DNA of 33,264 nt from Candidatus Zhuqueibacterota bacterium (GCA_016927835.1 JAFGMA010000148.1:1-33264); one strand, 5' to 3'; shown: positions 2,138 through 30,068, counted from the stretch's first letter. Program-made: numbers and translations. The notes: generated from the sequence alone by a model not told the origin.

Positions 2138-3106
2138 ATGCTTACATGGGGCATTATCGGGGGCATACTCATCATTTTCATCGGATTTGCAATCTGGTTT
2201 TTTGAGCGGAAACAGCCGGCTCAACTTGTCCTGATTGAGCGCAAGGGTGAGGTATCGGTTTGGAAACGCGCCTTTTACCCGAAGCCGCTTTGCCTCGTTC
2301 TGCCGGCAACAGTGCGATCTGTGGCGACTGAGGTAAAAACCCAGGCGAAAGGCAAGATCGATGCAGCGGTGAAACTGGTTGTTACGTTCTATGCGGATCC
2401 CGAAAATATTGCGCATCTGATTCGCATCGGCGGTTGGTCGAAAGAGGCGCCGGGTAAAGTTGAAAAAGAGCTTGCAGGTACATTACAGGGTATTGTGGGC
2501 GAAATCGTGGAACCACTGGAAATTACAGAAATAACGCGTGAAACCATCGCCAAAAAAGTAAAAGCCCGACTGGATACGATTTCCCAAAATTTCGGCATTC
2601 AGATTACCGCAGTAACCGTAACCAGCGCCGAAGCCCTTGAACCTAAAATCGTTGAAGCCATCAGACAACGTGAAGAAGCGCGAATTCTGGAAGAAACCGA
2701 AAAATCTGTTCAAACCAGTCGGATTGCGCGCGCTGAAATGAAAGCCAGCGCCGACCAAAAAATAGCCGAAGCCGAGCACCACACTGCTATGAAAAACTAT
2801 AGCTTGCGAAAAATTCAGGAAGAAGAAGCTGCAATACTGGCAAAAGCGGCTGTGGCACAACAAACCGAACGGCGTCAGATGGAACTCGAAATCGAAAAGC
2901 ACGAAGTGGAAATACTTGCTCAAAATCCGTCATTGCTCTTGCTCGCGCCCCAATTAACCCGACTGACCGAAGCCAGCCAACAACTTAAAAACGCTGAAAC
3001 GGTGATTACACTTTCCTCGGATTTGTTAAATAAATTGCCCGCGCCAATCCAGCAAATACTCAGCGCAATGAAAACCGATTCAAAAGCGAATGAAGCGGAA
3101 GAATGA
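2138..3106 (+). CDS. SPFH/band-7 (flotillin-like) membrane protein
   Basis: An N-terminal TM helix (WGIIGGILIIFIGFAIWFF) is followed by a ~170-aa globular region. The C-terminus is a long Ala/Glu/Lys/Gln-rich coiled coil (EAEHH..EEEAAILAKAAVAQQ..ELEIEKHEVEIL), which is flotillin/YqiK-like architecture. The family call rests on architecture, not on a recognised signature motif. Confidence 0.5.
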   Translation: MLTWGIIGGILIIFIGFAIWFFERKQPAQLVLIERKGEVSVWKRAFYPKPLCLVLPATVRSVATEVKTQAKGKIDAAVKLVVTFYADPENIAHLIRIGGWSKEAPGKVEKELAGTLQGIVGEIVEPLEITEITRETIAKKVKARLDTISQNFGIQITAVTVTSAEALEPKIVEAIRQREEARILEETEKSVQTSRIARAEMKASADQKIAEAEHHTAMKNYSLRKIQEEEAAILAKAAVAQQTERRQMELEIEKHEVEILAQNPSLLLLAPQLTRLTEASQQLKNAETVITLSSDLLNKLPAPIQQILSAMKTDSKANEAEE

Positions 3107-3218: not shown

Positions 3219-6200
3219 ATGAGCACTCCAGATCATCCAGAAAGCCAATTCGAAGCCCGATTCGGATTGAAGCATACGCCAACGGGCAAGGTTGCAGAAA
3301 TCAGCAAAGCCACCGCAGAATCCGATTGCCCCCCGAAAGAGCGTATTAACCTGCACATCGGAAATCCGGTCCAGCACATTCGCCTCGATGAACGCTACGC
3401 AGAATTGGTTTTCGGAAATGCGCTGAAACAATTCAAAGGACTGATCTGGTCCGAGCGCCAACAGCGACTGATCGAAACGCAAACCAGTCCGGTTCGCGGC
3501 AAGCTGCTGAAATTGATATTCGATACCATCGAAAAAGCCAACCCGTACATGCCCCAGGGTGGATACACTCCCCAAAAGCCAGGTACGTTGATCAAGCAGG
3601 TTCATGCATGGCTCACGCAAAGCCAGGATGAATCGCTGGAATATAGCATCGGTGCCGAGGCGGATCGACCCGAAGTTGCCATCACCAGCGGCGGAAGGAC
3701 TGAAGCGCTGAAACTGCTGCTCCAGGTGATTGAGGAAAATTTAAAAAGCCCTGACAAAAACCTTGTCTCCCTGGAAATTCCGCTCTCCGCATGCACAACA
3801 CGAACGTATAGCGGCAACATTACGTTGCTTGAAGGCACCGAAACCGACCTGCTGAAACAACTCGATCTCCTGGTTTCGAATCCGCAAACACATATCGGTT
3901 TTGTCTTACTTCATAAAATTTATTCAAAAGAATTCCGCCGGGAGTGCGGGGCACTCGCCGTGCGCAAAAACCTGATGCTGGTTGAGGCGAATGATGCCGC
4001 GAATTTTTACTCCCTTGCCAGAAGCCCGGGGATGGCGCAGCGCCTGTTGCGCGTCGTTACGCCGCAAGCTATTGATAAGCGCCTTGGGAACAGCTCAATC
4101 ACGTTTGTGCTGGGCAACGCGCTCTATATCGAAGCGCTGAATCTGTTGCATTTCCTGAAAAAAGGCACGCCTTCTGCCACTGAAGTCAAACTGCTCAGCT
4201 TTTTGCTGAATGACAGGGGATGTCTGGATGAACCACTATGGCGCGACCTGACAGCGCAGCACGGGGCAGCCTATTCGAAACCGCCAGAATTCGAAAACGC
4301 CCTCCGGATTCCGGGGCAACGTCATCCCGGTGTCCCCGATTTTGAACGCATCACCCACGCCCTATCGGGACTCTCATCACGAACCGGGGAGAATATTACC
4401 AGATTAGCCCGATCGGCTGAAAATTTAGGCGGCGATTTTGCGCGCCGGGCGGAAGTCATTTCCAGGAAAATTTTCAAGGACATCCATACGGACTTCTTCG
4501 GCGGGAAATCGAGTTGGGAAGTTATCGAAAATTTTTTCCTGAATTTGAATTCAGTACCGTTTTTAAAACAGCTTGAAGAGGCGTTTTTGGCGCAATTTAC
4601 AAAAGTGCATCCGGAATTCGATCCTTCGAATACCATTTCCCTGAGCGGATCGGCGCGCACAGCGCTCAGTTCAGCCGCCGAAGCCTGGCACCTGAGAGAA
4701 GCGATCATCCCTGATTTGAGTTGGACAATCGGCGACGCTATCCCCAATGTTACGGCTGTGCCGTTGAATGACGATTTATCGATTTGCGCTGATGGCATCA
4801 TTCAAACCATCTCGGCAAAAATCGATTCCGATCCCGACTGGCTCAACACAGGCTGTGTGGTGTTGAATAATCCGCATAATGCTACCGGAAAAATAACTCC
4901 GGAAGCCGAAATCGAAAAAATTCTCGTTTTTTGCCTGTCACGCGGGATCACCGTCATCGATGATTTATCGTATTCGAATGTGATCATCGCGGATCGGTCA
5001 GAACGAAACAAGCGCTTTCCGGTGAAAAATTGCCGTCAACTGACGAACCAATTGATTGCCAGGGGATATTTGCCACGAGATGCTTTTCGAACATTAATCA
5101 CGATTCGATCAATTTCGAAGACCGATTGCAAAGCCGGCGCCCGCCTGTGCGTGGTTGAAATCCCGGACAGGGCAATGCGCGAGGATTTTTTGAAAATCAC
5201 CGCCGAAATCGAGCCGAACCGGATGGCATTGCTGCTGTCATACTTGTTTTATCGAAACGGGCTAGATTTGCTGGAAGCATTCTGGGCGGAACGCGATCAA
5301 ATCATGTGGGAACGCATGCAGGCGCTGCTGATCGGCATCAATGACATTCCAGCCAGTGACAATCCGTACAGCATCCGGTTGATGCCTCCCCAGGGTGCGA
5401 TGTACCCGCATCTCATCGTGGATAAATTGCCCCCAAATGTGAATGTCGATGATCTAAGCACGAATTTAGCTGTCAGCGGCATCGGTCTCATCCCCATGAC
5501 CAATTTCGCCCGTACCGAATCCAGTTTTCACTTTGCCACTCGCGCATTCCGCTTGACCCTTGGCGGAGATAATGATCCATCCCGGTTGAAAAAACAGACC
5601 GCACGTCTCGTGGCGGAATTGACAACTTCAATCCAGCAGATCGCGTATGATTATACCCTGCATTCAACGGCAAAGCATGAAAACGCAGCTTTCAGCGTCT
5701 CACACCCCGGTGCAGATTTATTTCTTCGTGAGTGCAAAACCGGGTTCGAAATGTATTGGAACAAGATCGAGTCCCTCGCCAGGCAACGTATCGATTCTAT
5801 CTGGCTACCGTGGGAGCGCAAGCAACAGCATTGGGGCAGCAACAAGCATGATTTTTTATCGATTTATTTGCCCACCCGCAAATCTGTTATTTTGAGCAAA
5901 TTGGAAGATTACGCGAGGCTGACCGGAAACTTGCGCGAAAATTTCGCCTCGATTCCATTTCAAAAAAGGATTTTGAATCGATTTTGTCATGAAATTGAGC
6001 CTTCTTCTGAATCGATCCGGCGGGATCAATTCCAAACGCGGTTGTTCGATCGGACAGTTCACCCCACACAGGTGTATGCACTGGCACTTGAAAAATCGAT
6101 TTCAGAAATCATTGACGCAATTATAAACAAAAATGGTGATTCACTCCCGTCACCATCGCACCTGCTCAGACAATTGCAACTCGAATACATGGGTGAAAAC

Positions 6201-8933
6201 ATCGCCATCAAATCGGCAGAAGAAGCTGAAGAAGCAATCCACGATCTCGATCTGATTTCCCTGGTCGAGGATTATAGCCATTATTTTTATGGTGCGGATT
6301 TGAATTTAATATTATCGCTCTGGGGTGATTGGGATGGCAGTCAACGCCCAAGTGGTCAGGGACATACATTGGTGGCAGCCACACTGATTGCAAATGTATT
6401 GCGGCTTAGCGACCTGGTGCGCTTCATGGATGAATTGGGAATTTTGAGCGCCTCAGCGCGCCACATCCTGAATGAAATCGGTGCGATTGAAAAAAAGATT
6501 CAGAAATTTATCGAAATACTGGATAATATCACCAAATTAACCACAGAGTTGGAAGCGCGAATTCGCAAACATCTGGATGCGTTGGAACCGCCCGGGCGAA
6601 TGCTCAGAACCTTGCGCAAGCTCGGATTGGCGCGCGATCCCATACAGGTCGTATGGAAACATAATGACCGCAACGAACGGCGGATGCAAGCCTATCGCCG
6701 CGAACGCTCGACCGAAATACTGCGCTTCTTTAAAATCAATTATCAGCTTTGCGGAGAGATACAGCGTCTCATTCCGCACATCGAGCAGCACCTGCACCAG
6801 CCGGAGCTCCTCGAAAAGCTGGCGACGTATAAAAATCCGTTGAAGCGATTCTATCTGACACCTCGAATTCATCAGAAAATTATCACTTCGAAAGATCCGT
6901 TTACGATTGATACCACGGTCTACAACCTGGTTGAAATCAATAAAATGGGCGCGCAATTCGGTCATCCCGGACTCGTTCTCAGCCTGCAAGTGAGTATGAC
7001 CAATCGTGCCGATGCGATTATCAGGCTGGATAAAAAATTGCGCGATGAATGGGAACGGGTAAACCGCGAAAATCCGTCGATTCAACCGACACACATTCGC
7101 ATTGTACCGCTGTTCGAAGAAATCGAAATCCTTCAAAATCTCGAGGCGTTTCTCGATGAAATCTGGAATTATGCCCATGAGAGCAAACGCCTGGAACAAT
7201 CGATCCCGGATCGATTTTGTGAAATCATCGGCGAATTTTTCATCGCCGGATCAGACCTCAGTCAGCAGGTCAGTCAGACACAAGCGCTGGTGCTCTTCAA
7301 GCAGGCAAAAGCGTGTTTGAATACGTATTTATTGAAAAAAGGACTGGCAGGTCGAATACGTATAAAATTCGGAAGCGGGGAATCGGCACAGCGCCAGGGC
7401 GGCTATTTTGATCCGTACGCAGCGAAAAAAGCACTCCAATTGCCCGATACACACACCATAATAGACCAATTGCATGTTGACGGTTTCACGGCTGCCGCAC
7501 TGCAACAGGCGCGCTCACCTCTCAACGGGATTTTCAGCTCGAGCGACTTTCGAACGTTTCAATCGAACCTGGTGGAGAATTTGCGGCAACTCCCGGCAGA
7601 TGCCCTGGTAAATATGTTTCATCACCTTCGAACCACCCAGGCGACTTACGAGAGCGCCATCCAGAATGTGACACATACGTATTGGGGATCTCGACGCCGG
7701 CTGCAAGAGGAAATGCACACCCAATTGAATTTGCTCATGCAAGGCAGGCTCTCGCCGATTTACCTTGAATTTGCGCAACTGGTACAAAAAAATTTCAAAC
7801 ACATTCTTTATGGCAGCGCCGAAGACATGGCTGGGATCCATGCTATTTCCCTCTTCCTCTCGCGTGCGCTGCTGTCTGTTCGAGATCGACCCACGGTGCG
7901 TCCCACCAAAGAAACCGGTGAAGATCGCGGACGCCAAATCGTTGAACGACTATCCGGAACCCTGCCATTGAGCGAGCATGGCACGTTGCTTCGCGCCATT
8001 GGTCATAATAAAGCCCAGACAATGCTTCTGGCGATTAACCAACTCACAACGGGTCTGTTTCGCGCCATGCGAGAATTCCTCGGACAGGCAGGCAATCGTG
8101 ATGAACAAATCTTCAAGCTGCAAAAAGAAATCTTGCCGCATTTGCCCGTCAGGGATATTTTAAACACGCTCAGGTTGTACCACGCGCCAGATTTGCCTTA
8201 CCTGCGCATGGTCGAGTCGGCTTTCCCGCCCGGCAACAGCAGTATCAAGCTTTTATATGAGGAGCAGCGCGTCATGGGCGACTTGATACCGTACCTGCAG
8301 GAAGAATTGCTCCGCAGAAATGGGCTGGCAATGCTCACCAGGCATCGCACTCAAACCAGCATACTGGCACCAGAGGCGCTGCGCGCGATTCGCGCCGATC
8401 TGGCAGTCCTGCTGCAGCCGAATATCTTCAATACCGATATCCGCGAGCTTTTCGGAGAGCATGGCATTTCGGATGGGCGGTTAAAGGGTATGCGGCTGGA
8501 ATTGGAAAAACGGAAAATTATCGCAGCGACCCAATCCCAAATCTGGCAGCTTATCAAAGAGCCGATTACGGAACAAATTTACAGCTTTTTTGAACTGGCA
8601 CAAGCGATTAAAGCGCTGCGAATAGAGGGAAAAATTGGGCATCCCCGACTCAATATTGTCTCGCGCAGCCAGGTAAGTCGGCTGGGATCGGAAGTCAGCC
8701 GAATGTTGCGCAATGTGGCGGATGACAGCATGCGACAATTCCTGATCTCTGCTGTGCAGTATTTGCTCTATCTGCCTGAAACAGTGGAGGATATTCCCGA
8801 AGCCGTACTCATCGCCCTGCGTGACGTTCAAAAAATTCTCAGCCTTGACGAACAAGCTGTCAGCCGGCAGGATCAAAGTTATTTGCAATACCTCTTTTTG
8901 AAAATTGCCCGAATCGGCGGGGATTGCGGTTGA
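3219..8933 (+). CDS. Giant 1904-aa cytoplasmic multidomain protein: degenerate aminotransferase-like module, PLP aminotransferase fold-type-I module, and a C-terminal region with a PEPC-like motif block
   Basis: A 5.7-kb ORF with no interruption. aa 43-240: INLHIGNP, AITSGGRTEAL, VSNPQTHIG, YSKEF (AspC-like motifs, incomplete). aa 470-650: TALSSAAEAW, VVLNNPHNATGKIT, ITVIDDLSYSNVI, SISKTDCKAGARLCV (NPxNxTG / D / SxSK-x5-GxR, the PLP-lysine motif set). aa 1255-1400: QVSMTNRAD..VPLFEEIEILQNLEAFLDEIWNY..FIAGSDLSQQ..IRIKFGSGESAQRQGG. This is colinear with the PEPC motifs ISMA..SD, VPLFETxxDL, GYSDSxKD and FHGRGGxxGRGG, but the Lys and His are replaced. Confidence 0.8.
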   Translation: MSTPDHPESQFEARFGLKHTPTGKVAEISKATAESDCPPKERINLHIGNPVQHIRLDERYAELVFGNALKQFKGLIWSERQQRLIETQTSPVRGKLLKLIFDTIEKANPYMPQGGYTPQKPGTLIKQVHAWLTQSQDESLEYSIGAEADRPEVAITSGGRTEALKLLLQVIEENLKSPDKNLVSLEIPLSACTTRTYSGNITLLEGTETDLLKQLDLLVSNPQTHIGFVLLHKIYSKEFRRECGALAVRKNLMLVEANDAANFYSLARSPGMAQRLLRVVTPQAIDKRLGNSSITFVLGNALYIEALNLLHFLKKGTPSATEVKLLSFLLNDRGCLDEPLWRDLTAQHGAAYSKPPEFENALRIPGQRHPGVPDFERITHALSGLSSRTGENITRLARSAENLGGDFARRAEVISRKIFKDIHTDFFGGKSSWEVIENFFLNLNSVPFLKQLEEAFLAQFTKVHPEFDPSNTISLSGSARTALSSAAEAWHLREAIIPDLSWTIGDAIPNVTAVPLNDDLSICADGIIQTISAKIDSDPDWLNTGCVVLNNPHNATGKITPEAEIEKILVFCLSRGITVIDDLSYSNVIIADRSERNKRFPVKNCRQLTNQLIARGYLPRDAFRTLITIRSISKTDCKAGARLCVVEIPDRAMREDFLKITAEIEPNRMALLLSYLFYRNGLDLLEAFWAERDQIMWERMQALLIGINDIPASDNPYSIRLMPPQGAMYPHLIVDKLPPNVNVDDLSTNLAVSGIGLIPMTNFARTESSFHFATRAFRLTLGGDNDPSRLKKQTARLVAELTTSIQQIAYDYTLHSTAKHENAAFSVSHPGADLFLRECKTGFEMYWNKIESLARQRIDSIWLPWERKQQHWGSNKHDFLSIYLPTRKSVILSKLEDYARLTGNLRENFASIPFQKRILNRFCHEIEPSSESIRRDQFQTRLFDRTVHPTQVYALALEKSISEIIDAIINKNGDSLPSPSHLLRQLQLEYMGENIAIKSAEEAEEAIHDLDLISLVEDYSHYFYGADLNLILSLWGDWDGSQRPSGQGHTLVAATLIANVLRLSDLVRFMDELGILSASARHILNEIGAIEKKIQKFIEILDNITKLTTELEARIRKHLDALEPPGRMLRTLRKLGLARDPIQVVWKHNDRNERRMQAYRRERSTEILRFFKINYQLCGEIQRLIPHIEQHLHQPELLEKLATYKNPLKRFYLTPRIHQKIITSKDPFTIDTTVYNLVEINKMGAQFGHPGLVLSLQVSMTNRADAIIRLDKKLRDEWERVNRENPSIQPTHIRIVPLFEEIEILQNLEAFLDEIWNYAHESKRLEQSIPDRFCEIIGEFFIAGSDLSQQVSQTQALVLFKQAKACLNTYLLKKGLAGRIRIKFGSGESAQRQGGYFDPYAAKKALQLPDTHTIIDQLHVDGFTAAALQQARSPLNGIFSSSDFRTFQSNLVENLRQLPADALVNMFHHLRTTQATYESAIQNVTHTYWGSRRRLQEEMHTQLNLLMQGRLSPIYLEFAQLVQKNFKHILYGSAEDMAGIHAISLFLSRALLSVRDRPTVRPTKETGEDRGRQIVERLSGTLPLSEHGTLLRAIGHNKAQTMLLAINQLTTGLFRAMREFLGQAGNRDEQIFKLQKEILPHLPVRDILNTLRLYHAPDLPYLRMVESAFPPGNSSIKLLYEEQRVMGDLIPYLQEELLRRNGLAMLTRHRTQTSILAPEALRAIRADLAVLLQPNIFNTDIRELFGEHGISDGRLKGMRLELEKRKIIAATQSQIWQLIKEPITEQIYSFFELAQAIKALRIEGKIGHPRLNIVSRSQVSRLGSEVSRMLRNVADDSMRQFLISAVQYLLYLPETVEDIPEAVLIALRDVQKILSLDEQAVSRQDQSYLQYLFLKIARIGGDCG

Positions 8934-9489: not shown

Positions 9490-9708
9490 CTACTCGGTAG
9501 TCGGAATCGCGTTTTTTGAGGCAGGTTTCACAACTCTGCCACTTTTGATGCACTGAGTGCAGACGGTGATGCGCCGCGGGGACCCATTTACCAGCGCTTT
9601 CACTTTTTGCAAATTCGGCATAAAGCGGCGCTTGGTTACATTATGCGCATGGCTCACATGATTTCCGATGACCGGCTTCTTGCCACATATTTCACACATC
9701 TTTGACAT
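9490..9708 (-). CDS. rpmB: 50S ribosomal protein L28
   Basis: [34 protein letters not shown] is the classic L28 N-terminus, with the zinc Cys pairs. RBS ggagg is 8 nt upstream. The gene ends with TAG. Confidence 0.9.
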
Positions 9709-10181: not shown

Positions 10182-10817
10182 ATGGATTTGCTCAAAGAAT
10201 TGGCCGACAACGTAATCAAAGGGCAGGCACCTAAGACTGAGGAATTGACACAGAAATTGCTGGATGACAAAGTTTCGCCAGCAGATATTTTAAATAAAGG
10301 TTTGGTTGCAGGCATGGATGTTGTGGGTACAAAATTTAAAAACAATGAATTTTATGTGCCAGAAGTACTGATAGCTGCCAGGGCGATGAAAGCCGGGATG
10401 AAGCTTTTGCGCCCTAAATTAGCAGAATCAGGTGTAGAACCTGTTGGCAAATTTGTCGTTGGTACAGTCAAAGGCGATCTGCACGATATCGGCAAAAATC
10501 TGGTTGCGATGATGATGGAAGGCGCGGGTTTTGAGGTGATCGATCTCGGTGTGGATGTGACGCCAGAAAATTTTGTCAATACCGCCAAAGAGAGAAAAGC
10601 CAGCGTAATTGGCATGTCGGCATTGCTGACAACAACCATGCTGAACATGAAAGCAACGATTGAAGAATTGAAGAAGCAGGGCTTAAACGATACGATAAAG
10701 GTCGTCATCGGTGGTGCACCGGTCACTCAAAATTATGCAGATGAAATCGGCGCTGATGGGTATGCACCTGACGCAGCATCCGCCGTTGCCGAAGTGAAAC
10801 GACTCATGAAAATATAA
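10182..10817 (+). CDS. Cobalamin-binding corrinoid protein (MtaC/MtbC/MttC methyltransferase-cognate family)
   Basis: An N-terminal B12-binding-2 helical cap (ILNKGLVAGMDVVGTKFKNNEFYVPEVLIAARAMKAGM) is followed by a Rossmann B12-binding domain. The DxHxxG motif is present (GDLHDIGKNLV), and GMSALLTTTM follows. No MttB/MtaB-type methyltransferase partner is in the window. Confidence 0.85.
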   Translation: MDLLKELADNVIKGQAPKTEELTQKLLDDKVSPADILNKGLVAGMDVVGTKFKNNEFYVPEVLIAARAMKAGMKLLRPKLAESGVEPVGKFVVGTVKGDLHDIGKNLVAMMMEGAGFEVIDLGVDVTPENFVNTAKERKASVIGMSALLTTTMLNMKATIEELKKQGLNDTIKVVIGGAPVTQNYADEIGADGYAPDAASAVAEVKRLMKI

Positions 10818-10948
10818 TTTTAAGCAACCTGTTGGATTAAAAGTGTTTATACCAATTCGATGAATTTTTAGTTCGATGTCCGCGATGCGTTTTCATTTGC
10901 TAGTGGCAATTGACTATTCCCATGTATTCTGTAATATAGGAGGTATTT

Positions 10949-12175
10949 ATGGGTAAATTAGCCGTAAATGGCGGTGTACCTGTGCGGTCTAATCCTTTTC
11001 CTAAATGGCCGATTTGGGATCAAGGCGAAATTGATGCACTTACCGAGGTGGTGAAGAGCGGCAAGTGGGGCAGCTTGCACGGTAATAAAGTGAGCGAATT
11101 TGAGCAAAAATATGCAGCAATGCATAACGCCAAACACGGCATCTGCATCAATAGCGGAACGCTCGGATTACGCATTGCGCTGATGGCTGCCGGAATTGGC
11201 GGTGAAAAAGAGGAAGTCATCGTACCCGCTTATACATTTATTGCCAGCGCAAGCGCTGTTATCGAAGCGAACGCCGTACCGGTATTTGTAGATATCGATA
11301 GCGATACGTATAACATTGATCCCGATAAAGTTGAGAAGGCTATTACGCCCCGGACGAAGGCGATCATGCCGGTGCATTTCGGTGGCCGACCCGCAGATAT
11401 GGATCGCATCATGGAAATTGCGAAGAAACACAATCTGATCGTAATTGAAGATGCAGCTCAAGCCTGGGGTTCTTCCTGGAAAGGAACCGGTGTGGGCGCG
11501 ATCGGCGATGCCGGTGCATTCAGCTTCCAATCTTCCAAAAATATCACCAGCGCCGAAGGCGGTATCATTTTAACCAATGATGATGAACTGGCTAAATTTG
11601 CCCGGGCACATTCAAATTGCGGACGCAGCGCAGACGGTCAATGGTATGAACATTATTATTGGGGAACCAATGTGCGGTTGACCGAATTTCAAGGGGCAGT
11701 TCTGCTGGCACAACTGGCGCGGTATCCTGAGTTGCTCAAACGCCGGCAGAAGAATGCGGCTTACCTGAACAAGCATCTGAAGGCGATTGGCGGTACAGAA
11801 CCATTAAAGGATGACACGCGGATCACGAGCAATTCGGTGCACATTTACATCTGGCGTTATAAAAAGGAACAGTTTAACAATGCACCGCGAACAAGGTTCC
11901 TCGAAGCGCTCAAAGCTGAAATCCAGCAGGTCAGTCCCGGATATTCGATCCCGCTGTATCAGCAACCCGTATTCAAACAAAAAGCATTTGGTCCGAAAGG
12001 CAAAAAGATCGATATTGCCGTTGATTATTCAGCATATCATCTGCACGAATGTGAAAAGGCGTGTTTCGAAGAATGTGTCTGGTTCAACCAGAATATGATG
12101 CTCGGAACTGAAAAAGATATGAGTGATATTGTCGAAGCGCTGAATAAGTTAAAAAAACATGCGGATGAATTATAA
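10949..12175 (+). CDS. DegT/DnrJ/EryC1/StrS-family PLP-dependent (amino)sugar aminotransferase
   Basis: LAVNGGVPVR..PFPKWP N-terminus. The PLP lysine lies in FSFQSSKNITSAEGG, and IIEDAAQAWGS is present. A strong RBS aggagg is 5 nt upstream. Confidence 0.85.
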   Translation: MGKLAVNGGVPVRSNPFPKWPIWDQGEIDALTEVVKSGKWGSLHGNKVSEFEQKYAAMHNAKHGICINSGTLGLRIALMAAGIGGEKEEVIVPAYTFIASASAVIEANAVPVFVDIDSDTYNIDPDKVEKAITPRTKAIMPVHFGGRPADMDRIMEIAKKHNLIVIEDAAQAWGSSWKGTGVGAIGDAGAFSFQSSKNITSAEGGIILTNDDELAKFARAHSNCGRSADGQWYEHYYWGTNVRLTEFQGAVLLAQLARYPELLKRRQKNAAYLNKHLKAIGGTEPLKDDTRITSNSVHIYIWRYKKEQFNNAPRTRFLEALKAEIQQVSPGYSIPLYQQPVFKQKAFGPKGKKIDIAVDYSAYHLHECEKACFEECVWFNQNMMLGTEKDMSDIVEALNKLKKHADEL

Positions 12176-12186
12176 AAATGAAACTC

Positions 12187-12216
12187 AAAGCCTTCCTTCA
12201 CGGAAGGCTTTTTTTA
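12187..12216 (+). terminator. Intrinsic terminator-like hairpin directly after the aminotransferase gene and abutting the next start codon
   Basis: A 10-bp stem aaagccttcc / ggaaggcttt with loop ttcac, then a T7 run. The ORF track's extended start at 12178 of the next gene reads through this hairpin, so that start is not real. Confidence 0.6.
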
Positions 12217-12222
12217 TGGGGA

Positions 12223-12930
12223 ATGCACATGAATATTTTAGCTGTCGGCGCCCATCCGGATGATCTTGAAATTTTATGTGGCGGTACTCTCATTCGCTAT
12301 CATATAGAAGGGCATTCGATCACAATGGGATCGGTTTGCAATGGCAATAAAGGACATCGCACCCTGCCCGGGGATAAGCTGGCAAAAATCCGGCTGGCTG
12401 AGGCTCAAAATTCTGCCCGTATCATTCATGCGCAACACTTCTGCCTGAATATCCCGGATTGCGAAGTTTATGTCAACCGGGAAGCGATGGAAAAAGTGCT
12501 TAATCTCATCCGCCAGGCAAAACCGGATATCATCATCACCCACTCCCCGAATGATTATATGCCCGATCACCGCGTGGTCAGCGAACTGGTTTTTCAGGCG
12601 AGTTTTCACGCAACGCTCCCGTTGTACAATGCAGAACAGCCGCCGCATGACAAAATTACACCGGTTCTTTATATGGATACACTCGCCGGCGTCGATTTCA
12701 ATCCGACAATGTATGTCGACATTACAGATGTGTTCGAGCAGAAATTAGCGATGCTGCGCTGCCATAAAAGCCAACGCGATTGGCTCGATGATCACGATGC
12801 TATCGATATGGATGAATTTATGACAGCAGTCGCCCGTTTCAGGGGATTGCAGTGCAGTAAGAAATATGCGGAAGGATTCCGGAGTCTTGACGTCTGGGGC
12901 AGGAACAGGACTCAACGCTTGCTGCCGTAG
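12223..12930 (+). CDS. PIG-L / LmbE-family N-acetylglucosaminyl deacetylase
   Basis: MHMNILAVGAHPDDLEILCGGTL carries the AHPDDxE zinc motif. HSPNDYMPDHR is also present. The first in-frame ATGs after the terminator are at 12223 and 12229. Confidence 0.8.
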   Translation: MHMNILAVGAHPDDLEILCGGTLIRYHIEGHSITMGSVCNGNKGHRTLPGDKLAKIRLAEAQNSARIIHAQHFCLNIPDCEVYVNREAMEKVLNLIRQAKPDIIITHSPNDYMPDHRVVSELVFQASFHATLPLYNAEQPPHDKITPVLYMDTLAGVDFNPTMYVDITDVFEQKLAMLRCHKSQRDWLDDHDAIDMDEFMTAVARFRGLQCSKKYAEGFRSLDVWGRNRTQRLLP

Positions 12931-12966
12931 CGCGTGAATTTTTTCTTTTACCTGAATAGAGCGGTT

Positions 12967-14280
12967 TCACGCATTCGGCAGAGGATCTGTCAATTCTCGC
13001 TCGCGTTGTTTTTGAGTGGGTGTGATTGGTCCCTGCAGCAGCGGATCTTCAGTTTTTTCCATCCATTCATCCACCAAACGCCGCAATTCCTTGACAACTA
13101 TTGTGGTATCAGGCTCTTCAATCAAATTGTTCATCTCCCACGGATCGCGCGCAAGATCGTAAACTTCCTCTGCCGGACGCCGCTGCGCATAAAATTGATC
13201 GCGTACCGCGATTCCGGCGCTGCCTTTAAAAATATCAGCCGGAATATAAACCAGCGGGCGATCGCCAAAATTCCGAATATATTTGTACCTTTCAGTTCGA
13301 ACTGCGCGCATGGGATTATAGCGATCGTGCCAGCTCATTTCGCAAAAAATATGGGTGCGAGCGGTAAACGATTGCCGATTGAGCAGCGGCAAAAAGCTTC
13401 TGCCCTCAATCGTCCCGGGAATCGTTCCCCCAGCAAATTCCACCAGGGTGGGCAAAAAATCTACATTGCTGATCAACTCCCTGTAAACCATTCCTCCTTC
13501 GAAGCGCTGCGGAAGATGCATGAGAAGCGCAATCCTGATTCCCGGATCATAACACGTACCTTTCGCGCGCGGCATGGCGATACCGTGATCCGTGGTGAAG
13601 ATCACCAGCGTATTTTCCCTGAGCTGCAACTCATCCAGTGCATGCAGCAATCGACCAACCGATTCATCGACGCGGTGGATCAAGCCATTTAAGCCGGCGA
13701 TGTCTTTCCTGATTTCCGGCACATCGGGCAGATAGGGCAGCGGTTGCACCGTCCTCCAATCATCGATGGCATATTCCGATGCGTCGTGCGGATAAGGTCG
13801 ATGCGGCTCTTCGAATCCGAGCGAAATGAAGAACGGTCGCTGGTCAGCGGATTTTTGATTCGAAATTTCCTTAAGCCAGTGGATTGCGCCATCGGTGGCA
13901 GCTTTTGCGTTCCTTCCGCAAGTGTGCACCACATTGTATCCCAGGGTTTCGGCATGTGCCGATTCGTGCTGGACGCCGAATAAATGCGTTTCGTACCCGG
14001 CATCCCCCAGGTAGGTGGGAAGCTTTTTCACATCAGAATCAATTTCCCAGCCAATATGGGCTAATCCCATCAGTCCGTTTGCATGCGGTGATTTACCGGT
14101 CATCACGCTGCCCCGGCTGGGTGAGCATTGCGCGGCGCTGCAAAAGCAATTTTCGAATTTTACCCCGGCGCGTGAAAGCGCATCCAGGTTTGGCGTCGAA
14201 ATCCCCGCCTGATAGCATCCGAGTTGTTGACCCAGATCATGGCAGATGATGAAGATAATATTCGGCTGGTGGCTTGGCAT
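12967..14280 (-). CDS. Sulfatase (Cys-type), apparently cytoplasmic
   Basis: MPSHQPNIIFIICHDLG, with the CSPSR signature (AAQCSPSRGSVMTG). TDHG metal site. RBS aaagga is 7 nt upstream. No signal peptide. Confidence 0.85.
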   Translation of the reverse strand: MPSHQPNIIFIICHDLGQQLGCYQAGISTPNLDALSRAGVKFENCFCSAAQCSPSRGSVMTGKSPHANGLMGLAHIGWEIDSDVKKLPTYLGDAGYETHLFGVQHESAHAETLGYNVVHTCGRNAKAATDGAIHWLKEISNQKSADQRPFFISLGFEEPHRPYPHDASEYAIDDWRTVQPLPYLPDVPEIRKDIAGLNGLIHRVDESVGRLLHALDELQLRENTLVIFTTDHGIAMPRAKGTCYDPGIRIALLMHLPQRFEGGMVYRELISNVDFLPTLVEFAGGTIPGTIEGRSFLPLLNRQSFTARTHIFCEMSWHDRYNPMRAVRTERYKYIRNFGDRPLVYIPADIFKGSAGIAVRDQFYAQRRPAEEVYDLARDPWEMNNLIEEPDTTIVVKELRRLVDEWMEKTEDPLLQGPITPTQKQRERELTDPLPNA

Positions 14281-24443: not shown

Positions 24444-25511
24444 TTACTTGTTGCGATTTTTGCGATACACTTCCCTGCGATAAGCATCGAATTTTTTCTT
24501 CGCAGAGAGATGTCCGGAATGGGTTCTGCTGAAAGTGTGTCCGCCGTCGCCCCGGGCAACCATGTATAAATAGTCCACATCCTCAGGAAAAGCCGCCGCT
24601 AATAGTGATTGTTTTCCGGGATTGTTGATTGGACCGGGCGGAAGACCGGCAGTTTTGTAAGTGTTATACGGCGAATCGATTTCCAGATCGCGATTCAGCA
24701 ACCTGCGCGGTTCGGGTAGCAAATATTGGATGGTGGGATCGCATTGCAGAAGATAGCCTTTTTTCAGGCGATTTCGGTAAAGCGCTGAAATCAGCGTGCG
24801 TTCGGTATCGAGCATGGCTTCCCCTTCAATGAGCGAAGCCAGGATCACCATCTGGTGCTGCGAAAGATTCAATTCAGGATCGCGATCGCGAATCGTATCC
24901 GGGAAATGCTGCTTGAATTGATTTACCAGTATCGAAATAACCTGTTTCGCAGATGAGCCATCGGTCAGGTAGTACGTATCCGGGAAAAGATATCCTTCAA
25001 GCGTTGGCGCATCGATTCCCAGATTCCTGATAAACGACGTATCATGCACCAATTCCGCAAATTCCGTCGAATCGACAGCCAGCTTTTGCTGCAACAACGA
25101 GGCGATAAACCGGTGGGTTTTGCCTTCGGGGATGGTGACACGGGTGAGCGCAACTTTTCCACTGACCAGTATCTCTAGAATATGGTAGTTGGAAATGCCC
25201 GAGGGAATGTTGTATCTTCCGGCTTTGATTTTATTGGTGTAACCCATGAGCAGGGCGGTAATTTTAAAATGCGTTTTGTTGGCAATGACTTGTTCTGCTA
25301 ACAGCATTTCAGAAATCGCATCAAAACTCATCCCGCTTTTAATCGTGACGTCGGCAAATTCCCTGTCATGCCGAGTTTCGGGTTCCCCGAAGCAAATTGA
25401 ATAGATGTAAAGCGCAAGCGCGTAAACCACCAGTACAAAAACGATGAACAGGTAACGTTTCGATAATTTTTTACGTTTAACCAAATCCTGCGCTTTATTT
25501 TTTTCTCCCAT
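24444..25511 (-). CDS. mltG: Endolytic murein transglycosylase MltG (YceG family)
   Basis: A short cytoplasmic N-terminus, a TM helix (YLFIVFVLVVYALALYIY) and a YceG domain, with the hallmark YNTYKTAGLPPGPINNPG. Start chosen at the ATG at 25511. The track start at 25571 is a GTG inside lysJ. Confidence 0.8.
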   Translation of the reverse strand: MGEKNKAQDLVKRKKLSKRYLFIVFVLVVYALALYIYSICFGEPETRHDREFADVTIKSGMSFDAISEMLLAEQVIANKTHFKITALLMGYTNKIKAGRYNIPSGISNYHILEILVSGKVALTRVTIPEGKTHRFIASLLQQKLAVDSTEFAELVHDTSFIRNLGIDAPTLEGYLFPDTYYLTDGSSAKQVISILVNQFKQHFPDTIRDRDPELNLSQHQMVILASLIEGEAMLDTERTLISALYRNRLKKGYLLQCDPTIQYLLPEPRRLLNRDLEIDSPYNTYKTAGLPPGPINNPGKQSLLAAAFPEDVDYLYMVARGDGGHTFSRTHSGHLSAKKKFDAYRREVYRKNRNK

Positions 25512-25557
25512 TTTTTCTCTCTTTTTTCTAAATGCAAAAATCCACCCGGTACATCGA

Positions 25558-26712
25558 TCAGGCAAGCACACGTTTCAGCTTTTCCAGCACAGCGTCCAGT
25601 TCATCGTAAGATATTGTCAATGGCGGCAAAAGCCGCAGCACTGTTGAGCCTGCCGGCAAGGTGAGCAATCCCTCGTCGATCAGTTGTATAATATAGGGTT
25701 TGACCTTCTCTTTCATTTCAATACCGATCATCAATCCAATCTGCCTGATCTCCCTGACGCTTCTAAAATTGTATTGAACAAGTCGTTCTGCCAGATATTT
25801 GCCTTTTTCTTCTGCCTGTTGAGCGAGCTTCTGTTCGAGCATAAAATCGATTGCGGCACTGGCAGCGGCACAGGCGAGAGGATTGCCGCCAAAGGTTGAT
25901 CCGTGATTGCCCACGGGCGCTTCGATCTTATCGGAGCACACAACAGCGCCCATCGGGAGACCGCCGGCGATGGATTTTGCCAGGCACAGGATATCCGGCT
26001 CCACATCAAAATGCTCGATCGCGAACAGCTTCCCGGTGCGACAAAAGCCGCTTTGCACCTCATCGATGATCAGGATGATTCCCGTTTCGTCGCACAGCTT
26101 TCGAACCTTTTGAAAATAATCCTTTTCACCCAGGTTCACACCGCCTTCTCCCTGAACGGGTTCGAGAAGGATTGCTGCGGTTTCGGCGGTAATGGCTTGC
26201 TGCATTTTCTCAAAATTATTAAACGGCACGAAGTTGAAACCCGGCACCAGCGGTTCGAAATCCTGGCGATATTTCGGATTGAAGGTCGCGCTCAGGGCGC
26301 CCATAGTTCTGCCATGAAAACTTTTCATAGCGCAAATAAAATTCGGCTTTTTCGCTGTGAATCGTACGAACTTGATCGCGGCTTCGATGCTTTCGGTTCC
26401 GGAGTTGCAGAGGAATGCGCGGGTCAGGCTTTTCGGGGTGATGCGAATCAGCTTTTCGAGCAGAAGCGCTTTTTGATCATTATAAAATGTTCCTGAACAG
26501 GTGATCAGGATTTGCGCCTGCCGGACGATGGCGTCAATGACGGCTTCGTTGGCATGCCCAAGATTGGCGACGCCATGCCCGGCAACGCAGTCGATGTAGG
26601 CTTTGCCATTTTCATCCCAGACGGTGGCGCCCTTTCCGCGGACAATCACCACATCGCGTTTGGGATAGACATCGAATTCATACTGATTCTGCAATTCAAG
26701 GGTAGCGCTCAT
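25558..26712 (-). CDS. lysJ: Class III aminotransferase ArgD/LysJ (acetylornithine / LysW-gamma-Lys aminotransferase)
   Basis: GKGATVWDENGKAYIDCVAGHGVANLGH and LIIDEVQSGFCRTGKLFA (PLP lysine region). It overlaps lysZ by 4 nt (ATGA). Confidence 0.85.
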   Translation of the reverse strand: MSATLELQNQYEFDVYPKRDVVIVRGKGATVWDENGKAYIDCVAGHGVANLGHANEAVIDAIVRQAQILITCSGTFYNDQKALLLEKLIRITPKSLTRAFLCNSGTESIEAAIKFVRFTAKKPNFICAMKSFHGRTMGALSATFNPKYRQDFEPLVPGFNFVPFNNFEKMQQAITAETAAILLEPVQGEGGVNLGEKDYFQKVRKLCDETGIILIIDEVQSGFCRTGKLFAIEHFDVEPDILCLAKSIAGGLPMGAVVCSDKIEAPVGNHGSTFGGNPLACAAASAAIDFMLEQKLAQQAEEKGKYLAERLVQYNFRSVREIRQIGLMIGIEMKEKVKPYIIQLIDEGLLTLPAGSTVLRLLPPLTISYDELDAVLEKLKRVLA

Positions 26713-27500
26713 TCGATCACCGTTCCTTTTTCATTTAAGGCATCGCGCACCGGATGCTCGGTTCTGCCATCGCTGATGACGACTTTTGTGGCGCCGCTTT
26801 CGAACAATTTTTTCAACGCGAGCAATTTCCGTTTGATCCTGCCTTCCACGCGGGCTTCCCAAACCTGGAGTTCGTCGACCGACAGCCGGGAAATTAAAGA
26901 AGCCGGATCATCCGGATTTTTCAGGAAGCCGGGCGCTTCGATCAACTGGATCACCTGATCTGCCTCGAACTCGTTCTGAATGACATTGACAATATCATCA
27001 TTTTCGGAATTTATTGCAACATTATTTTCATCGATAATCGGCACGGAGAGCACGGGTGTGAAATGATTTTCCAGCAACAGCGTTAGCAGCGTTTTATTGA
27101 CGGACTTTGGTTTCCCTGAAAAATCCCTGACAATTTTCCGCTTTCCGCCTTCGTAAACTTTAATCCCGCTGTTGCGTTTACCCTGAATAACCTTGCCGTC
27201 CAATCCGGACAAGCCCACGGCGTTGATTCCGTGTTGCTGGCATAATTCGACGATGCGCTTGTTTTTGAGACCGGCATACGCCATCATCAACAAATCAATT
27301 GCGGTTTCATCTGAGAACACGCTGGAATAACCGGAAATCGATGTGAGCACCTTTTTAGACACCCCGATTTTCTGCGCCAGATCATCTCTTGCAGCATTCG
27401 CGCCGTGAACGATGATGAAAGCCTGTTCGACCTCGGAAAGATCGGCAATGATTCCGCTGAGATTAATCGATTTGCCGCCGCCAATTTTTATGATAAGCAC
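26709..27500 (-). CDS. lysZ: LysW-gamma-aminoadipate kinase / acetylglutamate kinase family
   Basis: MLIIKIGGGKSINL..IIVHGANA..NAVGLSGLDGK is nearly colinear with Thermus LysZ. It overlaps the preceding gene by 13 nt. Confidence 0.85.
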   Translation of the reverse strand: MLIIKIGGGKSINLSGIIADLSEVEQAFIIVHGANAARDDLAQKIGVSKKVLTSISGYSSVFSDETAIDLLMMAYAGLKNKRIVELCQQHGINAVGLSGLDGKVIQGKRNSGIKVYEGGKRKIVRDFSGKPKSVNKTLLTLLLENHFTPVLSVPIIDENNVAINSENDDIVNVIQNEFEADQVIQLIEAPGFLKNPDDPASLISRLSVDELQVWEARVEGRIKRKLLALKKLFESGATKVVISDGRTEHPVRDALNEKGTVIE

Positions 27501-28135
27501 CTGAATCCCTCAATGGTTTCGTTTTCAATTTTCTGCCAACCGGTTTCACCGGGATATTTCTCGGAACACAAGATCAACTCGTTTTCGGTGGTTTTTGTGA
27601 ACATGGTGAAATAATCCGCATCTTCGTTGAAGAGCGAGTGCAAATACAGGAAGCGTTTATCCGAAAGGATGATATTCATCGCCCGGATGTAAGTCGTTCG
27701 TTTTGCGATGATTCCTGTTGATTTTTCCAATGCGGGCAGCATATCTCCGTGATCGAATCGCTTGATATAATTGAAAATTTTTTCAGCGCCAATTCTGCCC
27801 TGTTCCTTGATGCGCACACCGTGCAATTCGCCGTTAAAAATGAAGGCGTATTTATCATCTGCAAACGGCATATTATTCTCGACGGCGATGCCTTCATTTC
27901 GGAAGGCACTTCGCGCGTGCACGAGTAACTGGTTGGTCGCGGGAAAATCCGTCAAATTGTCTTCCCAAATCGGACAAACATTTTTATAAATGCTCCAATG
28001 TCCGTCCTCCAACCAGGCGCAGCCCCAGCCGTCACCCTGGTACTCGCGGCTGTTTTGAGCGATGCGGGCAAACTGCCGCAGATGGTTGCGCATATCGGTT
28101 GGTTGCCGCACTGAAATTGCCAGTAATCTGCACAT
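27488..28135 (-). CDS. Class II glutamine amidotransferase-like Ntn amidohydrolase (YafJ/EgtC-like), embedded in the lysW operon
   Basis: Starts MCRLLAISVR (Cys2 N-terminal nucleophile), with LLVHARSAF and an Ntn-hydrolase-like length of 215 aa. The ATG is 2 nt after the lysY stop (TAGCCATG), and the 3' end overlaps lysZ by 13 nt. Confidence 0.6.
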   Translation of the reverse strand: MCRLLAISVRQPTDMRNHLRQFARIAQNSREYQGDGWGCAWLEDGHWSIYKNVCPIWEDNLTDFPATNQLLVHARSAFRNEGIAVENNMPFADDKYAFIFNGELHGVRIKEQGRIGAEKIFNYIKRFDHGDMLPALEKSTGIIAKRTTYIRAMNIILSDKRFLYLHSLFNEDADYFTMFTKTTENELILCSEKYPGETGWQKIENETIEGFRCLS

Positions 28136-28137
28136 GG

Positions 28138-29202
28138 CTATACCGGGTGAAGTCCCGGAAAATCTAATCCGGTGGTTTCGTCGAAACCGTGCATGATATT
28201 CAATGCCTGCAACGCCTGCCCTGCGGCACCTTTCATTAAATTATCGATGGCGCTGATGACCACCAGCCGGTTTGAATGCGGATCGCTTTCAAATCCGATA
28301 TCGCAGTAATTGGTTCCGGCGAGGAGCTTGGGTTCGGGATAGCGATAGATGCCTTCCCGATCTTTTACAATGCGGATAAAAGGTTCCTTCCCGTAAAAAT
28401 CGCGAAACAGCTTCCAAATATCTTTTTCCGCCAGATTTTCCTTTAAAAATACGTGCGAAGTTGCCAGCGTACCGCGAATAATATCAATTGCGGTGGCGGA
28501 GAAGTGAATCTGAATCGGATTGCTAAAGCTCAATTCCTGCAGCATTTCCGCAATATGACGGTGACCGGTGGATTTATATGACCGGACGCACCCGCTGCGT
28601 TCCGGGTGATGCGATCCTTCATTGGCTTTATTGCCGCCTTCGCTCGAACCCACTTTCACTTCGACAACGGTCCGTGCGGCATCAACTAGGTTATTTTTAA
28701 AAAAGGGATAAAGCGCCAGAATCGTCACGGTTGCATTGCAGCCGGCGCTGGAGATGAAACTGGCATGTTTCATTTCCGCGCGATGCAGCTCCGGAATTCC
28801 GTAAACGAATTTTTCGAGCATTTCCGGTGCAGGGTGGCGGCAGTTGTACCATTTTTCATAATCAGCCGGATTTTTCAGTCTGAAATCACCGCTGAGGTCG
28901 ATGATTTTAGGCGCCATTTTTTTGTACATTTCAATATTCTTCATTGACGTGCCATGGGGCAATGATAGAAACAGCACATCGCATGGCTCTAATTCCGCCA
29001 GCCGGCTAAATTTAAGCTGCGTTACCTTTCTTAAATTCGGGTGTACACGATAGACGAATTTGCCCGCGAATTGCTCCGATGTCACCTGGTTTATCTCAAT
29101 CCGCGGATGGAACAGCAGAAGTCGCAGGAGCTCGCCCCCGGCATAGCCCGATCCCCCTGCAATTGAGGCTTTAAGTTCAGCCATTGGTACCATCTCTCCC
29201 AA
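28138..29202 (-). CDS. lysY: LysW-gamma-aminoadipyl-phosphate reductase / N-acetyl-gamma-glutamyl-phosphate reductase family
   Basis: [19 protein letters not shown](P) fold. Active-site SAGCNATV. C-terminal [11 protein letters not shown]. Confidence 0.85.
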
Positions 29203-30031
29203 TTTTTATGACATAATCGACGATATATTTGGGGATGTCAACACCTGTGGGTGCGATGCTGTTCTTGAACTCCATCGTATAATTCACCTCATTTACGAGC
29301 AAGCCGGTTTCTGTTTCAAAAATATCCATAGCCACGATGCCGCCGCCAACAGCTTTCGCGGCTTTGACTGAAATGTCACCAATATCGGCGGTAACGGGAC
29401 AATTTGAAGCGATGCCGCCGCGCGCGGTGTTGGTAATCCAGTGTTCCGATGTCCTGTAAATCGCAGCGATGCATTTATCCCCGACGACGAAGCTTCGAAT
29501 ATCCCTGCCCTTTTTTTCGATATATTTTTGAATATAAAAAATTGAATGGTGATACGTTCCTAAAACGGTTTTATGTTCGAGAATAGCTTCTGCAGCGTCG
29601 TGATCATTCACTTTCGACAATAACCTGCCCCACGAGCCCACCGCCGGCTTCAATACCGCGGGATATCCCATGTCTTCAATCGCTTCCAGAGCCGATGCCT
29701 CAGTAAAAGCGATCCTGACCTCCGGTTGAGGAACCTTCTTTTCCTTGAGGGCGATGGATGTCAGCAGCTTATCGCCGCAGACAGTGGCGACGTGTGACGT
29801 ATTTACGCATCTTATGCCGGCGCTTTCGAATAGCCGCATCGCGTGCAATGCCCGGGAATGGTTAATACATCGCTCAAGCACAACGTCAAGATCGAAAGCG
29901 TCTTTTCCGAGATTAAATGTCAATTGCCGATCGTCGATCATCACAATCTCAACATCTTTGCGTCGCCGAAATTCATCCAACAAAAGCTTTTCATCTTTTC
30001 TGATCAAAGAATGCAAAAATCCGATTTTCAT
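29177..30031 (-). CDS. lysX: RimK-like ATP-grasp ligase LysX (alpha-aminoadipate--LysW ligase)
   Basis: Near-colinear with Thermus LysX over the whole length: [94 protein letters not shown]. Confidence 0.9.
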
Positions 30032-30068
30032 ATTCCCTCTTTACGTTATATAATAGAGTAAATCCCCG

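Follow-up and report, generated by a model that had tools for sequence, protein, structure and literature searches.

We analysed a 33,264-nucleotide (nt) stretch of DNA from Candidatus Zhuqueibacterota bacterium (GCA_016927835.1 JAFGMA010000148.1:1-33264; hereafter the window, with coordinates counted from its first letter), which carries a giant open reading frame (ORF) with a class-I aminotransferase module followed by a long C-terminal domain. This domain, residues ~875-1904, is almost certainly homologous to phosphoenolpyruvate carboxylase (PEPC), and the fused family to which it belongs is, in our best reading, a third and previously unrecognised PEPC clade. To our knowledge, only two PEPC classes are recognised, the bacterial/plant type and the archaeal type, the latter found in 2004. 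An earlier sequence-only reading of the window had proposed a PEPC-derived domain fused to aminotransferase modules. The fusion was borne out, with PEPC homology and a Pfam PF00155 module in one ORF; of the plural 'modules', one (amino acids (aa) 423-815) was verified, and the N-terminal ~340 residues matched no detectable family. The layout of the protein is given below (PLP, pyridoxal 5'-phosphate; pLDDT, predicted local distance difference test; TIM, triosephosphate isomerase).

3219..8933, plus strand: giant ORF, 1904 aa (NCBI MBN1349507.1, annotated 'aminotransferase class I/II-fold PLP-dependent enzyme')
3261..4238, plus strand: N-terminal conserved alpha/beta module, aa ~15-340 (model pLDDT ~90, conserved in alignment A6)
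4242..4484, plus strand: linker, aa 342-422, poorly conserved (pLDDT <50 at 342-392 and 402-422)
4485..5663, plus strand: class-I (fold-type I) aminotransferase module, aa 423-815 (Pfam PF00155, Foldseek)
5838..8930, plus strand: complete PEPC-superfamily domain, aa ~874-1904 (TIM barrel plus helical shell)
6990..7420, plus strand: motif block, aa ~1258-1401 (barrel strands 4-7, two metal ligands and the glycine-rich loop)

The NCBI name of the window protein refers to the aminotransferase only and leaves the PEPC half unnamed. A protein search returned 138 homologues of the giant protein at 36-67% identity, the complete ones mostly 1800-1850 aa long. Conservation counts given here refer to full-length orthologues from 74 species loci, which share ~35-40% overall identity. 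Seven homologues (P0030, P0032, P0042, P0072, P0090, P0098 and P0112) are just 730-1325 aa long; their contigs are very long, so the shortness does not come from contig truncation, and these genes may be frameshifted long-read assemblies or truly split. At one locus (L097) the aminotransferase half is detectable in part only.

Homology of the C-terminal domain to PEPC

An AlphaFold2 model of residues 851-1904 (pLDDT 80.5, predicted template-modelling score (pTM) 0.81) was compared with the PDB by Foldseek, giving 52 matches at E <= 1e-3; the 50 listed were all PEPC, with E values of ~1e-9 for plant-type PEPC and 5e-7 for the archaeal-type structure 3odm. The model holds the eight barrel strands in order (domain residues 94-96, 182-189, 361-368, 405-409, 444-449, 489-493, 531-535 and ~742). 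At the level of the fold, it is a TIM barrel within an all-helical shell, as in PEPC, and nearer to PEPCs than to other phosphoenolpyruvate (PEP)/pyruvate barrels. A reading as PEP mutase or a phosphonate enzyme was dropped because PEPCs scored ~10 Z units above isocitrate-lyase/PEP-mutase-type barrels.

At the sequence level the relationship emerged through an intermediate family. Single-sequence phmmer with residues 851-1904 against the PDB returned nothing. A profile of 28 aligned C-terminal halves of the fused family (A1) gave 3odm at a non-significant E of 0.56 when searched alone against the PDB, and its hhalign comparison with the single E. coli sequence was non-colinear and insignificant; split sub-profiles gave weak colinear matches to PEPC, with P 0.022 for LQEELLRR and 0.076 for the RDRP lid. 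When A1 was searched against 1.84 billion representative proteins, 247 were found at E <= 1e-3, nearly all of them the fused family itself. One outlier was P0241 (E 3.9e-27), a protein of 1038 aa without the aminotransferase part. With four relatives it forms a stand-alone family of ~1000 aa, which matched the window domain in hhalign (699 columns, E 1.4e-29). The stand-alone family clears the PF14010 threshold (32.8 bits, cut-off 25; best member 6e-10) and scores 7e-11 against TIGR02751, under the equivalog cut-off, and so bridges the fused family and archaeal-type PEPC.

With the fused and stand-alone families merged (profile A4), the top match among the 177,635 PDB sequences was 3odm, at E 1e-4 and in two colinear stretches. 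Against an alignment of 12 bacterial PEPCs (E. coli and 11 plasmid-borne ppc genes), A4 gave a P of 1.6e-5 in hhalign over 701 colinear columns, pairing domain residues 24-897 with E. coli 54-849. Significance of the sequence match to PEPC was reached only with the P0241 family merged in. The PEPC assignment suggested from sequence alone was to be abandoned if neither profile nor structure searches gave a significant match; both did, with 3odm at E 1e-4 and the PEPC matches in Foldseek.

The five stand-alone members (P0241 and P0253-P0256) all come from Logan read-archive assemblies, with loci at L016 1851-4850 and L017 8001-10931. The neighbours of the P0241-type gene in L016 encode glyceraldehyde-3-phosphate dehydrogenase, transketolase, homoserine dehydrogenase and serine hydroxymethyltransferase.

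Active-site residues of the PEPC-like domain

The sequence-only reading had started from the motif block at 6990-7420, quoting four peptides (QVSMTNRADAIIRLDKKL, IRIVPLFEEIEILQNLEAFLDEIWNY, EIIGEFFIAGSDLSQQVSQTQ and RIRIKFGSGESAQRQGGYFDP) as colinear with four conserved PEPC segments. The block is present in the ORF, with residue numbers about two off (6990-7420 encodes ~1258-1401). All four peptides were found in the ORF translation and all four PEPC segments in the translation of E. coli ppc (L001), and hhalign placed the window segments opposite the E. coli ones with their order kept. The profile-profile P for this one pairwise comparison (residues 1232-1395 against E. coli 456-590) was 0.0029. 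The near-identical spacing claimed between the GSD motif and the loop also held, with 39 residues from Asp1346 to Gly1385 and 37 from Asp543 to Gly580 in E. coli. The likeness is wider than the block, which is the centre of a complete PEPC-like domain of ~1000 residues. The mapped positions are listed below.

6060..6062, plus strand: His948 in TVHPTQ (TVH948PTQ opposite E. coli TAH138PTE), aligned by hhalign to the catalytic His138 of E. coli; 74/74 orthologues (E. coli His138, 12/12 bacterial PEPCs)
6864..6866, plus strand: Arg1216 in TPRIHQ, on model strand 3; 74/74, the Pro-Arg pair also being present in the stand-alone family
7116..7118, plus strand: Glu1300 in VPLFEE (PLFE1300 opposite E. 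coli PLFE506), aligned to metal ligand Glu506; 74/74
7254..7265, plus strand: Asp1346 to Gln1349 in AGSDLSQQ (GSD1346 opposite E. coli YSD543), with Asp1346 opposite metal ligand Asp543 and Gln1349 at Lys546
7365..7397, plus strand: glycine-rich loop K1383-F-G-S-G-E-S-A-Q-R1392-Q (K-F-G-S-G-E-S-A-Q-R1392-Q-G-G opposite E. coli F-H-G-R-G-G-S-I-G-R587-G-G-A), with Phe1384 in the place of His579, Ser1386 in that of Arg581 and Arg1392 in that of Arg587
7881..7994, plus strand: lid region, RDRPTVRP to LLRAI (RDR1557PTVR1561P opposite E. coli GSR699PAKR703R, LLR1592AI opposite E. coli SLR713AI), with Arg1557 at Arg699, Arg1561 at Arg703 and Arg1592 at Arg713, all invariant
8928..8930, plus strand: Gly1904, C-terminal, as in PEPC ...NTG; 73/74 (E. 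coli Gly883, 12/12)

In addition, LQEELLRR lies opposite E. coli LQAELLHR, and WGDWDGSxRP lies opposite E. coli SWMGGDRDGNP in a register that is uncertain. The mapped residues, including His948, Arg1216, Glu1300, Asp1346, Arg1392, Arg1557 and Arg1592, are invariant in 74/74 orthologues, and Gly1904 is present in 73/74. As a control, the E. coli residue positions were correct in the Ppc sequence and, Arg581 aside (11/12), invariant across the 12 bacterial PEPCs; the catalytic roles attached to them (His138 mutagenesis and the like) are those we take from the E. coli and maize literature. The weak echo of the PEPC tail noticed from the sequence alone was confirmed, in that the terminal Gly is shared by 73/74 orthologues and 12/12 bacterial PEPCs, and its column is invariant in the alignment with the five stand-alone relatives. 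Between RDRP and LRAI the lid carries an insertion of ~21 residues relative to E. coli, with low model pLDDT. The PEPC lid is itself flexible (PMC8637149).

The three replacements described in the sequence-only reading are real and kept across the family in the orthologue alignment that it had called for. Lys546 (12/12 bacterial PEPCs) is replaced by Gln1349, invariant in 74/74 orthologues; His579 (12/12) by Phe1384 in the window and by Met, Leu, Phe or Ile across the family; and Arg581 (11/12) by Ser1386, with Ser in 67, Cys in 6 and Asn in 1 of the orthologues. At the same places 3odm reads IARSDTAMSYG and ILGCGSLPFR-GH, with Met for Lys546, Leu for His579 and Cys for Arg581; its lid and last strand opposite the window are IPKNRDRLT and PRAISF. 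The window family follows this archaeal pattern, with a hydrophobic residue at 1384 and mostly Ser or Cys at 1386, and its G-x-G-x4-R loop is as long as in the other two clades.

The aminotransferase and N-terminal modules

Residues 423-815 pass PF00155 with 37.4 bits in the whole protein and 42.4 bits (E 6.6e-11) against a cut-off of 19.7. A second structure model, of aa 1-850 (pLDDT 83.8, pTM 0.84), matched 1-aminocyclopropane-1-carboxylate (ACC) synthase, aspartate aminotransferase (AspAT), LysN and kynurenine aminotransferase structures in Foldseek at E ~1e-14. The module contains the motifs NNPHNATG, DDLSY, SISK(634), GAR(642) and FR(778)LTLGG, and Asn554, Asp582, Tyr585, Lys634, Arg642 and Arg778 are invariant in 74/74 orthologues. 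By motif position, and from what is known of AspAT, we take these to be the PLP Schiff-base Lys, the pyridine-N Asp, the Asn/Tyr pair, the phosphate Arg and the alpha-carboxylate Arg. We consider it very likely that this module is catalytically active.

The N-terminal module (aa 1-345, window 3219-4253) gave no Pfam match and no PDB match with profile A6, and its comparison with the aminotransferase module (hhalign P 0.13) did not demonstrate an internal duplication; for these reasons we do not call it an aminotransferase. It carries the aminotransferase-like snippets INLHIGNP and SGGxxE, and the position expected to pair with the PLP Lys is held by an invariant Gly299. Possibly the module is a degenerated aminotransferase-like half that acts as a pseudo-subunit.

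Distribution and the SPFH/Band-7 partner

Relatives of the giant protein were found in 355 of 185,579 genomes in a scan with one genome per species. As labelled, the carriers include Calditrichota, Ignavibacteriota, KSB1, Acidobacteriota and Chloroflexota, with cultured Melioribacter and Rosettibacter isolates among those in Ignavibacteriota. The best match in the scan was a Caldithrix metagenome-assembled genome (MAG; 65% identity), and the protein search added a Marinimicrobia orthologue. Gene context was sampled at 80 loci, at all of which (80/80) the aminotransferase half lies in line upstream of the PEPC-like half.

The recurrent neighbour in the window is the following gene.

2138..3106, plus strand: SPFH/Band-7 protein, 322 aa, with a hydrophobic, transmembrane-like N-terminus (Pfam Band_7, 29.5 bits against 23.6)

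A homologue of this SPFH gene lies directly upstream on the same strand at 75 of the 80 loci, and the remaining five end at a contig edge (75/75 testable), so that linkage to an upstream SPFH/Band-7 gene is obligate. The upstream proteins at L013 9027-9992, L014 4978-5961 and L015 5020-5988 are 30-34% identical, and the pairing spans several phyla. The SPFH gene is the sole recurrent neighbour across the 80 loci; others that might have been conserved there, such as carbonic anhydrase, transporters or malate dehydrogenase, did not recur. The 112-nt gap between the SPFH gene and the giant gene holds no terminator-like site on the plus strand. A reading of the pair as a defence system was rejected, with no PADLOC match. 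In the literature searched we found no description of a PEPC-aminotransferase fusion, as the sequence-only reading had supposed, or of its pairing with an SPFH gene.

Comparison with known enzymes

Archaeal-type PEPC (PepcA/atPEPC; 3odm; PF14010, TIGR02751) is the best PDB sequence match of the window domain, obtained with the merged profile. The two have in common PL(F/V)E(D), A(G/R)SD without a Lys three residues after the Asp, a hydrophobic residue at the His579 place, Ser/Cys at the Arg581 place, the G-x-G-x4-R loop, RDR in the lid and RAI on the last strand. However, atPEPC is a stand-alone enzyme of ~520-560 aa, a compact subunit of ~55-60 kDa (PMC8100219), whereas the window domain has ~1000 aa with a large extra helical shell and sits behind ~850 fused residues. 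The window domain is also far under the PF14010 and TIGR02751 thresholds and has its own invariant Lys1383, Glu1388, Gln1349 and His1596.

With bacterial/plant-type PEPC (E. coli Ppc, maize/Flaveria; PF00311) the domain shares a size of ~900-1000 aa, colinearity with E. coli 54-849, and the motifs TxHPT(E/Q), PLFE, SD, the R587 loop, the (S/D)RP…R lid, LRAI, LQxELLxR and the terminal Gly. It differs from this class in having only 12-14% identity, in the replacement of Lys546, His579 and Arg581 and in not passing PF00311; the aspartate/malate allosteric residues of bacterial PEPC (Lys773, Arg832 and Asn881) could not be mapped on it. Its closest relatives outside the fused family are the stand-alone P0241 and P0253-P0256 proteins, with which it shares motifs seen there as TFHPSQ, WIDxDGAxRP, PLFE, FFAGSDxS, IKLGTGExLxRQxG and the terminal Gly. 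These proteins are 17-19% identical to the window domain and have neither an aminotransferase half nor an SPFH neighbour, and they reach the PF14010 threshold whereas the fused family does not.

The aminotransferase module shares its fold, PF00155 and the PLP and alpha-carboxylate residues with class-I aminotransferases (Thermus/Thermotoga AspAT, LysN, ACC synthase, kynurenine aminotransferase), but differs from them in being preceded by a ~340-aa module of no family and fused to the PEPC-like domain. As a functional analogy only, PEPC followed by AspAT in C4 photosynthesis, crassulacean acid metabolism and anaplerosis would correspond to the two halves, with two enzymes there and one polypeptide here. 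In plants, PEP and HCO3- are converted to oxaloacetate and then to aspartate (PMC3586729).

Predicted activity and alternative explanations

From the replaced Lys, His and Arg, the sequence-only reading had suggested that the domain is probably non-carboxylating. This does not follow, because archaeal-type PEPC also lacks Lys546, His579 and Arg581 and yet carboxylates; archaeal-type PEPCs are established carboxylases (PMC8100219). Since 3odm is without the same three residues, the replacements set the bacterial/plant class apart from the rest, not carboxylases from non-carboxylases. The residues common to both PEPC classes (the metal-ligand Glu and Asp, the His of HPT, Arg587, Arg699, Arg713 and the terminal Gly) are all kept. 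The PEPC-like domain is very probably an active enzyme rather than a relic, and we lean towards reading residues ~875-1904 as a working catalyst that belongs to a third and far-diverged clade within the PEPC superfamily. That the domain truly carboxylates PEP is a closely balanced prediction, marginally favoured at best, and the coupling of carboxylation to aspartate formation is a tentative proposal.

In the proposed mechanism, the C-terminal domain would bind Mg2+-PEP and, like the two known PEPC classes, carboxylate it to oxaloacetate by using bicarbonate, and the fused aminotransferase would turn this labile 2-oxo acid into aspartate, probably with glutamate as the amino donor. The reaction of the whole polypeptide would be PEP + HCO3- + Glu -> Asp + 2-oxoglutarate + Pi, and the SPFH partner may tether or organise the enzyme at the membrane. 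Given its intact-looking active site, the protein may make aspartate directly from PEP and bicarbonate. In favour of this reading, the genome papers on two cultured lineages in which MAG-derived relatives were found, Caldithrix abyssi and Melioribacter roseus, list malic enzyme, PEP carboxykinase and pyruvate carboxylase but no PEPC.

Several observations weigh against this reading. Identity to known PEPCs is only 12-16%, and the curated models stay below threshold on the window protein, with E 0.078 for TIGR02751 (11.8 bits against a cut-off of 146) and E 0.11 for PF14010 (11.4 bits against 25); PF00311 gave E 0.013 on the fragment aa 1201-1500 (13.8 bits against 22.4) and no match on the whole protein. 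The three sub-threshold scores all fall on one stretch. The active-site correspondences were drawn from alignments, and carboxylase activity is predicted from conserved residues alone. Arg396 of E. coli (IDIRQES) was not paired by hhalign, and Arg1216 is its presumed counterpart from the position in the model. Gln1349, Lys1383, Glu1388, Gln1393 and His1596 are invariants of the family's own, absent from bacterial PEPC and 3odm, which makes altered chemistry a live possibility. The substrate of the aminotransferase is unassignable because the module is too divergent: NCBIfam matches all fall well short of their cut-offs, phmmer finds nothing in the PDB and the Foldseek matches are generic. PEPC is not strictly a missing function in the host lineages, since pyruvate carboxylase and/or PEP carboxykinase are already present there. 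A carboxylase-aminotransferase model also leaves unexplained what the SPFH partner does beside a cytosolic enzyme.

One alternative is that the PEPC-derived domain no longer carboxylates and that its PEP/metal site serves other chemistry. It might, for example, hydrolyse PEP to pyruvate, which would then be transaminated to alanine, or let the enolate attack some electrophile besides CO2, perhaps one that the PLP domain supplies. The replacement of Lys546, His579 and Arg581, the five family-own invariant residues, the very low similarity to curated PEPC models, a fusion and SPFH linkage without precedent and the other C3-C4 enzymes that the hosts already encode would all fit such a change. However, archaeal-type PEPC carboxylates without the same three residues, all residues common to the two proven carboxylase classes are kept in 73-74 of 74 orthologues, the length of the glycine loop and the terminal Gly are retained, and an aminotransferase beside a PEPC fits oxaloacetate-to-aspartate conversion more simply than it fits the alternatives. 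We regard a loss of carboxylation as rather doubtful. A bolder proposal, that the domain catalyses a reaction new to the PEPC superfamily, acting on the PEP enolate or on another phospho-enol or 2-oxo acid together with the PLP domain in an SPFH-organised membrane assembly, is unlikely.

It is quite improbable that one half merely regulates the other, with the PEPC-like half a regulatory or scaffold pseudoenzyme on an active aminotransferase, or the aminotransferase sensing amino acids on behalf of an active PEPC. PEPCs do undergo allosteric inhibition by aspartate or malate (PMC8100219, PMC3586729), and the N-terminal module without recognisable family signatures would suit such a role, but pseudoenzymes usually lose their catalytic residues, and here the sets of both halves are invariant in 74/74 orthologues at ~35-40% identity. 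Chance colinearity of motifs in a helical region is what the empty single-sequence searches, the curated models below threshold and the E of 0.56 against 3odm from the fused-family profile alone might suggest. It is refuted by the Foldseek matches, of which the 50 listed are PEPC, by the merged-profile E of 1e-4, by the hhalign P of 1.6e-5 over 701 columns and by the transitive link through P0241, and is extremely improbable.

Other genes in the window

On the minus strand, 24444-31232 holds a gene run that includes an alpha-aminoadipate (LysW-type) lysine pathway, with homocitrate synthase, a RimK/LysX ATP-grasp enzyme, a semialdehyde dehydrogenase, an amino-acid kinase and a class-III aminotransferase; a GATase_4 gene is located within the run, which ends with YceG. 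In Caldithrix abyssi this rare lysine pathway has likewise been reported, as a single locus (PMC5317091). The plus-strand region 10182-12930 encodes a 211-aa stand-alone protein that carries two B12-binding domains and, after it, a DegT/DnrJ/EryC1-type aminotransferase and a PIG-L family deacetylase. None of the catalytic partners usual for a cobalamin-binding protein lies next to it.

A 72-aa ORF at 9490-9708 on the minus strand is ribosomal protein L28 (Pfam E 2.4e-22), and similar minus-strand genes (~73 aa) adjoin the giant gene at its 3' end in L013 and L014. Two long ORFs, 12934-13692 (plus) and 12967-14280 (minus), overlap each other. A sulfatase is encoded by the one on the minus strand (Pfam E 1.5e-39), and the 252-aa plus-strand one has no family match and is probably spurious.

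Implications

The family would be a third PEPC class, one that the curated PEPC models of Pfam and NCBIfam used in the scans do not pick up. If the domain carboxylates, metabolic reconstructions of these sediment and hot-spring heterotrophs omit a CO2-assimilating, aspartate-forming step, and a natural single-chain PEPC-aminotransferase would offer a ready example of the channelling of unstable oxaloacetate. Were its reaction instead new to the PEPC superfamily, the fusion would be a new metabolic module and not a simple anaplerotic shortcut. The SPFH pairing ties a poorly understood family of membrane scaffolds to a defined enzyme, and thereby makes that link testable.

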